From an uncultured Spirochaetia bacterium (GTDB lineage: Bacteria > Desulfobacterota_D > UBA1144 > Nemesobacterales > Nemesobacteraceae): a DNA stretch of 64,000 nt. This document shows positions 17,133 to 20,520 of this stretch, piece after piece. Position 1 is the stretch's first letter. Every line of letters starts with the position of its first letter. The stretch is taken from the NCBI GenBank assembly GCA_964429945.1, contig CAYSDX010000002.1, forward strand, positions 10,154 to 74,153. Direction: 5' to 3'. The position numbers and the translations under genes are program-made. A model generated the notes under the pieces. That model saw only the letters and a program-made list of their open reading frames with translations. It was not told the DNA's origin and made no database searches.

Positions 17133-18239
17133 ATGCCCGCTCGAAATGACACGGACTTTATGAAAAAAGCTCTGAGGCTTGCCCTCAGAGGGGAAGGGTG
17201 CACCAGCCCCAACCCCATGGTCGGCGCTGTCTGCGTGCTTGGGGGACGTATTGTAGGCCGTGGCTACCATAAAAAATCCGGTTCTCCTCACGCGGAAATC
17301 GAAGCTTTTGGGGATGCTGCGAAAAAAGGAATTTCTCTCGCGGGCGCAACGCTTTACGTGACGCTTGAGCCCTGCTGCCACACTGAGAAGCTTACTCCTC
17401 CGTGTACTGACGCTATAGTGGCCTCGGGCGTATCCAATGTTGTCGTGGGCACCATTGACCCGAATCCGAAAGTGAGCGGAAAGGGGGTGGCGAAGCTTCG
17501 CAGAAGCGGGATATCTGTGAGAACCGGGGTGCTTGAGAGGGAGTGCGCGGAAATAAACGAGTTTTTCAACAAGCACGTCGTCTCGGGACTTCCTTTCGTA
17601 ATCTTAAAATCCGCTTCGACTATTGACGGCAAAATAGCTTCAGGGACGGGTGATTCCAAGTGGATAGGGAGCGTGAGGCAGAGAAAGATGGCCCATGGGC
17701 TGAGAAAGAAAGTGGATGGCGTGATAGTCGGGATAAACACGGTGCGCGCAGATGATCCGGGGCTTGACGTTCGTCTCGTCGGCGGGAACGTGCGCCAGCC
17801 GGTTCCGGTGATTATGGATTCAAAGCTCCGTATTTCGCCCAAAGCAAAGATCTTCAGCGCCCATCCCCGCTCCGTAATAGCCACTACGGAGGCCGCAAGC
17901 CCGATTAAGGCCAAGAGACTTTCCAAGCTCGGTGCCGAAATCCTGAGATTAGAATCCGATTCTGCGGGCCGCGTGTCCGCTGTGGACCTCCTCCGCGAAC
18001 TCGGGGCCATGGGGATGTGTGGAGTTCTGGTTGAGGGAGGGAGCAGGGTAGGGGCCTGTTTTCTGCGAGAGGGCCTGGTTGACAAGGTGGTTTTCTTCTA
18101 CTCCCCCAGGATTATCGGAGGCGACGGGGTGAATATGATTGGAGATCTTGGGAAGGAATCGATTAAAGAGGCGATTAATGTCAAGAACATCAAGGTCAAA
18201 AGGTTCGGCGATGAAATGATGATAGAGGGTTACATATGA
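17133..18239 (+). CDS. ribD: Bifunctional riboflavin biosynthesis deaminase/reductase RibD
   Basis: CDA zinc motifs (HAEIEA, LEPCCH) followed by the reductase domain (KSASTIDGKIA, VLVEGG). Confidence 0.9.
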   Translation: MPARNDTDFMKKALRLALRGEGCTSPNPMVGAVCVLGGRIVGRGYHKKSGSPHAEIEAFGDAAKKGISLAGATLYVTLEPCCHTEKLTPPCTDAIVASGVSNVVVGTIDPNPKVSGKGVAKLRRSGISVRTGVLERECAEINEFFNKHVVSGLPFVILKSASTIDGKIASGTGDSKWIGSVRQRKMAHGLRKKVDGVIVGINTVRADDPGLDVRLVGGNVRQPVPVIMDSKLRISPKAKIFSAHPRSVIATTEAASPIKAKRLSKLGAEILRLESDSAGRVSAVDLLRELGAMGMCGVLVEGGSRVGACFLREGLVDKVVFFYSPRIIGGDGVNMIGDLGKESIKEAINVKNIKVKRFGDEMMIEGYI

Positions 18240-19490
18240 AAGTAGGGAGCCTTACATTACTAGATGTGAACGGATGCGATTGCAGGCAAATCGGGTATAT
18301 ATACGGTGATGATAAAGACTTACAAGTGCCGTGCCAAGCTGACAAAGTCGGGTCATAAAGCGTTATCTCTGGTGTTCGGGATGTGCGCGACACTTTACAA
18401 TGCCTGTCTTGAGGAGCGTATTGACTGCTACAGGAAGACGGGTAAATCCCGTTCATATTACGACCAGTGCAAGGCACTGACCGAAGTGAGAACGGATGAT
18501 CCAGAGTATGCCAATATCAGCGTTCAGGTGTTCCGTGGAGTTGTAGGTCGCATAGACAAGGCATACAAGCGGTTCTTTAAGCATGGTGGTTTCCCGCGAT
18601 TCAAGAGTTCCGGGCGTTGGCGGACAATAGAGATAAACGACCAGTGCTGGCATATGCTGAAGCGTGAGAGGCAGAAGCTTGTTCTCAAGGTAAAGGGGCT
18701 TCCCCGTATCGAAGTAAAGACCGAACGGGAGCTGCCCCCAAACTCATTGCTGAAAGCGATACGAATAACCAGAAAGCCTTTGCGCACGGAAGTCGCATTA
18801 TCTTACGAGTTGCCAACTCCCGAGGCAAAACCAGCCGGCAATCCCGTTGGGATAGACATGGGGATATCGAAGCGTCTTACCTTGAGCAACGGGGAGACCG
18901 TGGAGAAGAGGGAAGTGGACAGGCGGAGGTTAATGCGGCTACAGCGTTCCGTATCTCGCAAGAAGAAAGGAAGCAACAACAGAAGGAAGGCCATTTCGTT
19001 GCTGGCGAGAGAGTGGCAGAGACTTACGGAAAAAGAGAGGAACTATCTCCACAGGCTGACTTCGGAGATAGTAAGGATGTACGACTTTATAGCGGTAGAA
19101 AAACTTGAAACGAAAAAGATGCTTGGCAACAAGCAGTTGGCAAAGAGCATACAGGAACAGACTTGGAGAAAATTTGCTACGCTGCTTAACGAGAAGGCTG
19201 AGAGTGCTGGCGTTACAGTAGTGGCGGTGAACCCCAAGGGGACTTCGCAGGAATGCTCAAGTTGTGGAGCAACAGTAGAGAAATCTCTGTCTGTCCGGAC
19301 GCACAGGTGTAATTGTGGATATGAAGCGGACAGAGACGTAAACGCGGCAATAAATATCCTTCATCGAGGCATCTCGGTTGTGGGTGGGAAACTCAAGCAG
19401 TCCCGCATGGTCGGAAGGATGAGAGAGAAGCAAGACAGCAGTCTTGCTCGGCCAAGAACAGTATATGTCTACCAATGTGTATAAATCCCA
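18240..19490 (+). mobile_element. IS200/IS605-family element remnant carrying tnpB only (no tnpA); ends not mapped
   Basis: It fills the whole ribD-nadD gap. Only 66 bp lie upstream of tnpB, and the tnpB stop overlaps the nadD start. No Y1 transposase ORF is present. Boundaries are approximate. Confidence 0.5.
18306..19484 (+). CDS. tnpB: TnpB (IS200/IS605 OrfB) RNA-guided DNA endonuclease, catalytic residues intact
   Basis: 392 aa with RuvC-I GIDMG, RuvC-II AVEKLE, zinc ribbon CSSC-x14-CNC and RuvC-III DRDVNAAINIL. N-terminus is MIKTYKCRAKL. The start is GTG 18306 or ATG 18309. Confidence 0.9.
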   Translation: MMIKTYKCRAKLTKSGHKALSLVFGMCATLYNACLEERIDCYRKTGKSRSYYDQCKALTEVRTDDPEYANISVQVFRGVVGRIDKAYKRFFKHGGFPRFKSSGRWRTIEINDQCWHMLKRERQKLVLKVKGLPRIEVKTERELPPNSLLKAIRITRKPLRTEVALSYELPTPEAKPAGNPVGIDMGISKRLTLSNGETVEKREVDRRRLMRLQRSVSRKKKGSNNRRKAISLLAREWQRLTEKERNYLHRLTSEIVRMYDFIAVEKLETKKMLGNKQLAKSIQEQTWRKFATLLNEKAESAGVTVVAVNPKGTSQECSSCGATVEKSLSVRTHRCNCGYEADRDVNAAINILHRGISVVGGKLKQSRMVGRMREKQDSSLARPRTVYVYQCV

Positions 19491-19495
19491 AAATA
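19350..19495 (+). ncRNA. Predicted omega-RNA (reRNA) scaffold overlapping the tnpB 3' end
   Basis: Inferred from TnpB biology plus visible structure: a perfect 8-bp hairpin (AGCAAGAC-AGCA-GTCTTGCT, 19429-19448) and an enclosing CCTTC/GAAGG pairing (19358-19362 with 19413-19417). Ends are not defined. Confidence 0.3.
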
Positions 19496-20152
19496 GGTCT
19501 TATGGGCGGTTCGTTCGATCCCGTGCATGCCGGTCACCTGAGGGCCGCTGAAGAGATAAGCGAAAAACTGGGGCTTGACGAAGTGGTTTTCATTCCGGTT
19601 CTTCTCTCTCCTCATAAAAACTCCGAGACCATGACCAACTCCTCCCACAGGCTCAACATGCTTAACCTCTCGATAAAAGCCAATCCTCATTTCAAGATTT
19701 CCGATATGGAACTTCGCAGGGAGCCCCCGTCCTACACTGTCGATACTCTCAGGTCGCTCAACGAAAGCAACCCGGAAGACAGGCATTATTTCATAATGGG
19801 TTCCGAACTTTTCGCCGAGATAGATACGTGGAAAGAGTTCGCGGAGCTTTTTAACTACTCAAGTTTCGTTGTTCTCCGCCGTCCCGGTTACGACGTTCCC
19901 GATTCCGCCAGCCTGATTCCTCTTGCCCTCAAAAATGACTTTCGATATTCTTATAGCGACAAGGGCATGGATGTTTTTACTCACACAAGCTCAAATGAGT
20001 TGTTTTTCGTAGATATCGCCGGCATAAGGGTTTCTTCCACGGAGGTCAGGGAACTCGCGAGCCGGGGTAATTCCCTAAGATATCTGGTAGTGCCTGAAGT
20101 GGAAGAGTACATAGCGGGAAACGGCCTTTACCAGCTGGAGGAAAAACTATAG
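19475..20152 (+). CDS. nadD: Nicotinate-nucleotide adenylyltransferase NadD
   Basis: KIGLMGGSFDPVHAGHL (the (H/T)xGH motif) and a SSTEVR-type C-terminal motif (ISSTEVRE). The ATG at 19475 overlaps the tnpB stop at 19482-19484. Confidence 0.9.
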   Translation: MCINPKIGLMGGSFDPVHAGHLRAAEEISEKLGLDEVVFIPVLLSPHKNSETMTNSSHRLNMLNLSIKANPHFKISDMELRREPPSYTVDTLRSLNESNPEDRHYFIMGSELFAEIDTWKEFAELFNYSSFVVLRRPGYDVPDSASLIPLALKNDFRYSYSDKGMDVFTHTSSNELFFVDIAGIRVSSTEVRELASRGNSLRYLVVPEVEEYIAGNGLYQLEEKL

Positions 20153-20169
20153 AGTCCAGGGAAAAAGCC

Positions 20170-20520
20170 TTGCTTGTCGCCCGCGCCGCTTGGGAGAAAA
20201 AAGCGGAGAATCCCGTCGTATTGGATATTGGGGAAAAAAGTGACGTGGCGGATTATTTCGTCGTGTGCAGCGCTAACTCCGACAGGGGCGTGAAGACCAT
20301 AGTGGAGAGCGTTGAACGGGAGCTTAAAAAACGCGGGATAAAGATATTCGGAACCGAAGGCGTCTCAGAAGGCAGATGGGTGCTGCTTGACCTTGTAGAC
20401 GTTGTTCTCCACGTATTTTATCGGCCCGTACGGGAGTTCTACGATATAGAAGGACTCTGGATCGATACCCCGAGGGTGGACCTGCCTTTCCTTAAGGAAG
20501 GCAGATCCGAGGTTGTCTGA
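20170..20520 (+). CDS. rsfS: Ribosomal silencing factor RsfS (Iojap family)
   Basis: 116 aa with a TTG start. Contains KKAENPVVLDIGEKSDVADYFVVCSANSDRGVKTI and WVLLDLVDVVLHVF. Confidence 0.85.
   Translation: MLVARAAWEKKAENPVVLDIGEKSDVADYFVVCSANSDRGVKTIVESVERELKKRGIKIFGTEGVSEGRWVLLDLVDVVLHVFYRPVREFYDIEGLWIDTPRVDLPFLKEGRSEVV

Follow-up and report, generated by a model that had tools for sequence, protein, structure and literature searches.

In the window, by which we mean the whole analyzed stretch of 64,000 nucleotides, the genes ribD and nadD are separated by a 1243-bp element that carries a tnpB gene. We propose that positions 19356 to 19489, at the 3' end of this gene, encode the scaffold of the omega-RNA (also called right-element RNA, reRNA) of the TnpB nuclease, with six covarying helices, a pseudoknot and a guide taken from the nadD flank, and that the carrier is of the IS1595 type. 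Based on sequence comparison we assign this reading a rough probability of 0.8. The omega-RNA identity is supported by the position of the region, by an intact nuclease and by a covarying, pseudoknotted fold. The window belongs to a metagenome-assembled genome of Candidatus Dadabacteria (2.07 Mb, 121 contigs). The predicted scaffold is composed as follows:

19356 to 19489, + strand: predicted omega-RNA scaffold, structured core, based on covariation; overlaps tnpB codons 350 to 391
19356 to 19420, + strand: Stem A, ATCCTTC (19356-62) with GAAGGAT (19414-20), encloses P1 and P2; 7 of 7 pairs covary if the distant family is included
19363 to 19378, + strand: hairpin P1, 19363-69 with 19372-78, core CGAG-GCAT-CTCG; 4 to 5 of 7 pairs covary
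19379 to 19407, + strand: P2, TGTGGG (19379-84) with CCCGCA (19402-07), conserved GGGAA in the loop; 2 of 6 pairs covary
19408 to 19454, + strand: pseudoknot helix P3, TGGTCG (19408-13) with CGGCCA (19449-54), crosses Stem A; 4 of 6 pairs covary
19429 to 19448, + strand: P4, perfect 8-bp hairpin; up to 32 sequences per pair altered on both sides
19461 to 19482, + strand: P5, GTATA (19461-65) with TGTAT (19478-82), within the right inverted repeat; 3 of 5 pairs covary

The first-pass annotation of this stretch had suggested an omega-RNA across the tnpB 3' end and the right element end on account of an unusually clean structure. The location agrees with our result, as the structured part covers the final 130 nt of tnpB and stops at the element boundary. 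What is unusual about the structure is not the folding energy of 19300 to 19520, which is ordinary (minimum free energy −58.6 compared to −57.3 ± 4.4 kcal/mol for shuffled sequences, z = −0.30), but the covariation among homologous right ends. Two of the described hairpins can be read directly from the sequence, namely the perfect 8-bp hairpin AGCAAGAC-AGCA-GTCTTGCT, whose coordinates are exact, and CGAG-GCAT-CTCG at 19365 to 19376. The outer CCTTC/GAAGG pairing exists with CCTTC at 19358 to 19362, but its other half lies at 19414 to 19418 and not at 19413 to 19417, and the helix is with 7 bp longer than had been claimed (Stem A). Both strings of a further GGGA/TCCC stem are present as well (19386-89 and 19401-04), yet the homologues favor TGYGGG with CCCGCA. 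On these comparative grounds the stem was replaced by P2, which leaves GGGA in the loop.

We aligned the right ends of 67 homologues, for which RNAalifold gave helices with compensatory changes. The scored structure of 43 pairs is the sum of these helices, the outer pairing from the first-pass annotation (Stem A) and the crossing helix P3. In 95.8% of the alignment cells the partners can pair, compared to 34-45% if the partners are slid; 17 pairs are altered on both sides, and none of 500 shuffles matches the observed values. A covariance model built from the homologous tnpB 3' ends led to a distant family, and with its inclusion (83 sequences) 31 of the 43 pairs covary, a count for which one must keep in mind that this alignment was fitted to the model for all helices but P3, and that the copies share descent and are in some cases orthologous insertions, so that independence is overstated. 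Stem A occurs as ATCCTTC/GAAGGAT, ACTCTTA/TAAGAGT, GTTCTCA/TGGGAAC and ATTTGCA/TGTAAAT, which are fully compensatory and draw on the distant family. Equally compensatory are the versions of P3, TGGTCG/CGGCCA, GAGTGC/GCACTC and GCAAGC/GCTTGC, for a helix that had been left out of the covariance model. As Stem A and P3 cross each other the RNA is pseudoknotted, which has also been published for TnpB reRNAs (PMC10711439). The many G-U pairs found among the 67 homologues are an argument that the fold is specific to the sense strand.

Further hints arise from the conservation of the region. Third-codon identity amounts to 0.70-0.79 over 19327 to 19461, compared to approximately 0.55 in the remaining tnpB. 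The covariance model, covering 19318 to 19489, has one match in the window and two in the genome; the window copy scores 180 bits with all scaffold helices intact. Mini-elements of 257-327 bp without tnpB consist of the two ends and the RNA module only, and deletion derivatives retain the sequence from about 19328 onwards.

Two more pairings were considered. RNAalifold had proposed an outer GGG/UCC pairing (19339-41 with 19486-88), which we dropped because it is invariant and broken in the window copy. A tertiary contact between GGGAA in the P2 loop and the terminal UUCCC is no more than a possibility: it is favored by one compensatory case (the copy L053) and by two distant copies in which a fifth pair covaries, and several uncompensated cases speak against it.

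The nuclease and its carrier are located as follows:

18247 to 19489, + strand: 1243-bp tnpB-only element with IS1595-type terminal inverted repeats (TIRs), the left one degenerate in the window copy; delimited from 57 copies and the empty site
18309 to 19484, + strand: tnpB, 391 aa; Pfam OrfB_IS605, Cas12f1-like_TNB and HTH_OrfB

The tnpB gene is the sole long open reading frame (ORF) on the sense strand of the element. Its product aligns with ISDra2 TnpB (PDB 8EXA and 8H1J) at E = 2e-33 including the catalytic residues, and both the RuvC triad D183/E264/D343 and the CxxC...CxC zinc finger are intact. A DNA search of 60 relatives returned copies from 23 of 35 genomes within the genus, at most 8 in any one of them, and from no genome beyond it; 69 loci were collected. 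The covariance model found a family missed by BLAST in another genus of the same order, with a TnpB that is 35% identical. In one genome of that other genus (G045) there are 16 IS1595-type tnpB copies (L186-L202), which fall into two TnpB clades with lengths of 404-407 and 463-485 aa. The second tnpB copy of the window's own genome (L002, C18:32422-33646) lies where alaS starts, and the alaS ORF now opens within the right end of the element (MAIIP-KGYDVRREF); the left end of this copy is too decayed for a clean duplication.

The element boundaries were obtained by comparison of the copies. All of them share ...ATAANTCCC and diverge thereafter, which sets the right end at 19489. The left end starts with GGGAATTAT..., the reverse complement of the right end, and the repeats extend over approximately 27 bp, the right one from about 19463 to 19489. 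The 8 bp outside both ends are identical in 26 of 57 copies, compared to 3 of 2000 mismatched pairs of ends, and after small registration shifts 38 copies possess a target-site duplication (TSD) with at least 7 of 8 positions matching. Elements of the IS200/IS605 family are defined by having neither TIRs nor a target duplication, by subterminal hairpin ends and by insertion 3' of a fixed 4-5-nt motif (PMC13565253). With TIRs of about 27 bp and an 8-bp TSD we rejected membership in this family (IS1341 group). The first-pass annotation had drawn on characterized TnpB systems; the carrier is of neither the IS200/IS605 nor the IS607 type known from these, and has IS1595-type ends.

The link to IS1595 results from a scan of the window's own genome. 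The 10-nt end motif alone yielded mostly chance matches and became informative once a matching 8-bp duplication was required. Two larger elements with the same repeats were then found (C120:9705-13151 and C74:74598-80175), and both encode transposases with DDE_Tnp_IS1595 and Zn_ribbon_IS1595 domains (Pfam DDE_Tnp_IS1595, 2e-41) together with methylase cargo. IS1595 transposases are present in 32 of the 36 genomes of the genus. Including 31 more from the genus, 33 transposase-carrying elements with matching TIRs and perfect 8-bp TSDs were delimited. None of these 33 contains tnpB, and the RNA model matches nothing in the 459 kb holding them (best E = 0.18). The tnpB element thus agrees with the IS1595 family in its ends and its 8-bp duplication, and does not encode an IS1595 transposase of its own. 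It is therefore regarded as an IS1595-type element that lacks a transposase and carries TnpB and the RNA module as cargo.

These relatives also bear on the question whether the structured region acts as DNA, for example by subterminal binding sites or a hairpin for the transposase. The last 27 nt are indeed terminal inverted repeat, and helices P5 and P6 are inside it. The 110 nt upstream, however, are absent from the 33 transposase-carrying elements with the same repeats, there is no mirror-image copy at the left end, and on the opposite strand the frequent G-U pairs would turn into A-C mismatches. IS1595 is a DDE family with simple TIRs, which provides no grounds for expecting such a signal. 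A transposition signal at the DNA level is thus very improbable.

Apart from tnpB, elements with these ends show diverse content. The C120 element carries an N6/N4 DNA methylase fused to an HNH nuclease, and the C74 element a 618-aa methylase-like protein with several small membrane-like ORFs; both have a perfect 8-bp TSD. A 538-bp stretch (C17:26572-27109) with IS1595-like inverted repeats, a 7/8 duplication and an ORF for a 154-aa peroxiredoxin/Bcp-like protein may represent a mini-element with cargo, or its ends may match by chance. At C115:24847-24969 there is a 123-bp element resembling a miniature inverted-repeat transposable element, with the same repeats and a 7/8 duplication, without an ORF or the guide-RNA module. 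Another genome of the genus (G026) has 36 IS1595 transposase matches, many split into two ORFs at one point, and no tnpB element, which looks like the expansion of a frameshifted IS1595 lineage.

The insertion site can be described by the following features:

17133 to 18239, + strand: ribD; Pfam RibD_C and deaminase domains; its TGA (18237-18239) overlaps the native nadD ATG
18236 to 18238, + strand: native nadD start codon, now severed from nadD; candidate target-adjacent motif (TAM), ATG; from the empty-site comparison
18239 to 18246, + strand: left TSD copy AAAGTAGG, one mismatch to AAAATAGG; from the empty site and TSD comparison
19490 to 19497, + strand: right TSD copy AAAATAGG; same basis
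19490 to 19509, + strand: predicted guide AAAATAGGTCTTATGGGCGG; from the scaffold end at 19489 and the conserved motif 5' of the duplication
19475 to 20152, + strand: nadD (nicotinate-nucleotide adenylyltransferase), present form; Pfam CTP_transf_like

NadD orthologues occur in all 36 genomes of the genus. In all 29 other genomes of the genus whose loci were read the site is empty and ribD leads directly into nadD (...GGTTACATATGAAAATAGGTCTTATGGGCGG); the flank of the closest genome (95% NadD identity) is identical. The empty site reads ATG-AAAATAGG-TCTT, the ribD TGA overlaps the nadD ATG (ATGA), and NadD begins with MKIGLMGGSFDP. From this comparison it follows that the element sits exactly after the nadD ATG at 18236-38.

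As the scaffold ends at 19489 the guide is predicted to start at 19490 with AAAATAGGTCTTATGG..., a 16-mer that is unique in the genome; a guide length of 16-20 nt was assumed after characterized TnpBs. The earlier expectation of a guide reading into nadD holds insofar as the flank from 19490 follows the scaffold and its first 8 nt, the target-site duplication, equal native nadD codons 2-4. The likely present start of nadD at 19475 is, on the other hand, located inside the scaffold.

A one-sided base preference is found at the insertion sites. Of the 38 well-delimited TnpB elements, 35 have a G immediately 5' of the left duplication, and in 14 of 18 copies of subfamily A, to which the window copy belongs, ATG precedes the duplication. 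The corresponding base on the right side is G in 8 of 38, which equals background, and transposase-carrying elements have G on 13 of 66 sides, again background (compared to 35 of 38: Fisher p = 1.6e-13). In the second genus the flank motif follows the TnpB clade, with TG for the 407-aa clade (G in 8 of 8) and A for the 463-485-aa clade (7 of 7); taken together, the clades have ATG, KG, TG or A. A one-sided motif which tracks the nuclease and not the transposase is an argument for a candidate TAM, here ATG. The duplication itself is variable in sequence, with the same AT-rich preference in TnpB and transposase-carrying elements, and therefore more likely belongs to the guide, as its first 8 nt, than to the scaffold.

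A further aspect of the insertion concerns the start codon that nadD uses now:

19475 to 19477, + strand: right-end ATG, likely the present nadD start according to frame statistics; nadD here overlaps the tnpB stop (TAA, 19482-84)

Translation from this codon would give NadD the N-terminus MCINP-KIGLMGG in place of the native M-KIGLMGG. The right end of the subfamily reads ATG NNN ATA ANT CCC, i.e. 15 nt from the ATG to the end, so that any insertion directly behind a start codon is in frame. Consistent with this, of the 33 right ends that possess an ATG, 21 lead in its frame into a host ORF of 60 or more codons, compared to 2 and 4 for the other two frames (binomial p = 3e-6, for copies that are not fully independent, as several are orthologous insertions). 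For right ends without ATG the three frames account for 3, 5 and 5 cases. The restored N-termini look canonical, e.g. M-KIAVIGTGYVGL and M-KIGLMGGSFDP. Frame statistics and N-termini together make it most likely that nadD is translated from 19475. One insertion is shared by two species (L012 in G030 and L035 in G003), and the original host start codon upstream of the left TSD is now ACG in L012; such a drift is expected if the original start is not used.

This arrangement could also be taken to mean that the fold is a cis-acting element of the mRNA, which serves re-initiation of translation from tnpB to the host gene or the stability of the transcript, and no guide scaffold. In line with such a function the new ATG of the host gene lies beside helix P5, and almost all copies with such an ATG have the tnpB stop 5 nt before it (the two overlap in the window copy). 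The fold is nevertheless kept at right ends without ATG in AT-rich sites, where only 3 of 26 have an in-frame host ORF, as well as in the second genus and in the mini-elements lacking tnpB, and its place, size and pseudoknot match TnpB reRNAs (PMC10711439). We consider a purely cis-acting role improbable.

At the left end a 40-codon leader ORF (18236-18358) starts at the orphaned nadD ATG, crosses the element end and extends in a different frame over the first 47 nt of tnpB. This leader may bring ribosomes to tnpB. In approximately 12 of 16 copies its stop is at most 10 nt from the tnpB ATG, instead of the 47-nt overlap of the window copy. We gave little weight to a translational coupling, as the left ends have a common origin and short open frames are likely to arise by chance. 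A promoter scan found no sense-strand sigma-70-like promoter in or before the element, which is weak evidence in an uncultured phylum and suggests that the element is probably transcribed from the ribD-nadD operon.

With the omega-RNA reading as a basis the following mechanism can be envisaged. An IS1595 DDE transposase acting in trans, e.g. that of the C120 or C74 element, most likely placed the element into the 8-mer target AAAATAGG right behind the nadD ATG. TnpB would bind the operon transcript and process its 3' part. The TnpB-RNA complex would then cut element-free alleles, in which ATG as candidate TAM is followed by AAAATAGGTCTTATGG, and recombination with the occupied copy would restore the element. 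The left TSD copy would escape cutting because only 8 nt match the guide, and the right one because it is preceded by TCCC, which is not the TAM. Translation of nadD would proceed from the right-end ATG, with a gain of MCINP in place of M. We tentatively extend this to a lineage specialized for gene start codons, which uses the host ATG as TAM and the TSD as 5' end of the guide. Its right TIR would have three roles, as transposase site, as the last helices of the guide RNA and as an in-frame replacement start codon. This extension falls short of an even chance.

The window copy itself might be a fixed relic, in which the omega-RNA module is real by descent, no excision occurs, TnpB and the guide are idle, and the right end is kept as the start of nadD. 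The left TIR, with only about 10 of 18 positions in agreement with the right one, and the mismatch in the left duplication would fit with this. The nearest relatives have 86-88% DNA identity and the other copy in the same genome 77%, therefore the insertion is not recent; in addition, no genome of the genus lacks nadD. In a relic, however, frameshifts are expected as they occur in some other tnpB copies, whereas tnpB of the window has the full open frame of 391 codons with all catalytic residues, and the scaffold helices are all preserved. We regard an idle relic as unlikely.

Several points weigh against the omega-RNA reading or its functional consequences. The single-sequence fold is no better than shuffles, and no Rfam family matched in a cmscan of 17500 to 20500 (E ≤ 10; the only match was a chance one elsewhere), so that one sequence alone proves nothing. 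The fitted alignment and the shared descent of the copies were mentioned above together with the counts. The apparent TAM has just 2-3 nt, shorter than the 4-5 nt of IS200/IS605 target motifs, and DDE excision already leaves a double-strand break, which makes the benefit of a homing nuclease less obvious (both PMC13565253). Finally, given the degenerate left repeat and the mismatched left duplication, the window element may no longer move, in which case homing would be moot.

Guide RNAs of TnpB are well characterized in IS200/IS605 and IS607 elements, which insert without scars. The family reported here comprises about 80 natural copies in two genera, from which the fold, the boundary and the candidate TAM can be read by comparison. 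The motif shifts with the TnpB clade and the target duplication must fit into the guide; the family therefore offers a direct test whether a homing nuclease helps a transposon that breaks DNA on excision. The start-codon arrangement would represent a compact way for a mobile element to occupy essential operons without death of the host. For annotation this means that the likely present starts of nadD, alaS and similar genes are located within a transposon end, with their native starts 1.25 kb upstream. If the specialization for start codons is true, TnpB decides which IS1595-type insertions persist, essential genes such as nadD, alaS or hemL are translated from within a guide-RNA scaffold, and guide maturation and host-gene translation compete on one transcript.

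Compared to ISDra2 and the IS200/IS605 omega-RNAs (PDB 8EXA, 8H1J), the region is likewise on the sense strand over the tnpB 3' end and the right end, the scaffold has multiple helices with a pseudoknot and ends at the element boundary with the flank as guide, and the nuclease agrees in its D-E-D RuvC triad and its zinc finger. In contrast to these systems, which have hairpin ends and insert without a scar, there are TIRs and an 8-bp duplication, no Y1 TnpA, a guide that would start with the duplicated target, and a candidate TAM of 2-3 nt (ATG or KG) instead of TTGAT.

According to a review from 2026, IS200/IS605 and IS607 lack TIRs and TSDs, and prokaryotic TnpBs with DDE transposases are known but rare (PMC13565253). 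Altae-Tran et al. (2023, PMC10691335) described DDE-associated TnpB branches (DDE-1 to DDE-6) with symmetrical inverted ends and solo TnpBs sharing these ends. The present element resembles them in its inverted ends, in a tnpB 3' end at most 250 bp from the element end, and in a solo TnpB whose ends are shared with transposase-carrying relatives. It differs by its probable IS1595 partner and by a transposase that shares an element with tnpB in none of 33 cases. The DDE partners named in these two texts are IS630 (PMC10691335) as well as ISL2, IS630 and IS1031 (PMC13565253); the main text of PMC10691335 does not mention IS1595. Our literature search returned no paper linking TnpB with IS1595 and none describing the replacement of a start codon by a TnpB element. 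With IS1595-family insertion sequences the element shares the terminal repeats (GGGAATTATRTA...) and the AT-rich 8-bp duplications, unlike them it has no transposase inside and carries tnpB and the guide-RNA module as cargo, and unlike the transposase-carrying IS1595 elements its sites possess the additional one-sided flank motif.

A TnpB-family nuclease with its RNA in a transposon with TIRs and TSDs is also known from the Fanzor-carrying transposons of eukaryotes (Yoon et al. 2023, PMC10711439), in which the duplication was described as part of the scaffold. In both settings the RNA has to accommodate a target duplication adjoining its scaffold. The element of the window would be a bacterial case with an IS1595 partner, and its duplication, variable and with a conserved motif 5' of it, more likely represents the first 8 nt of the guide.

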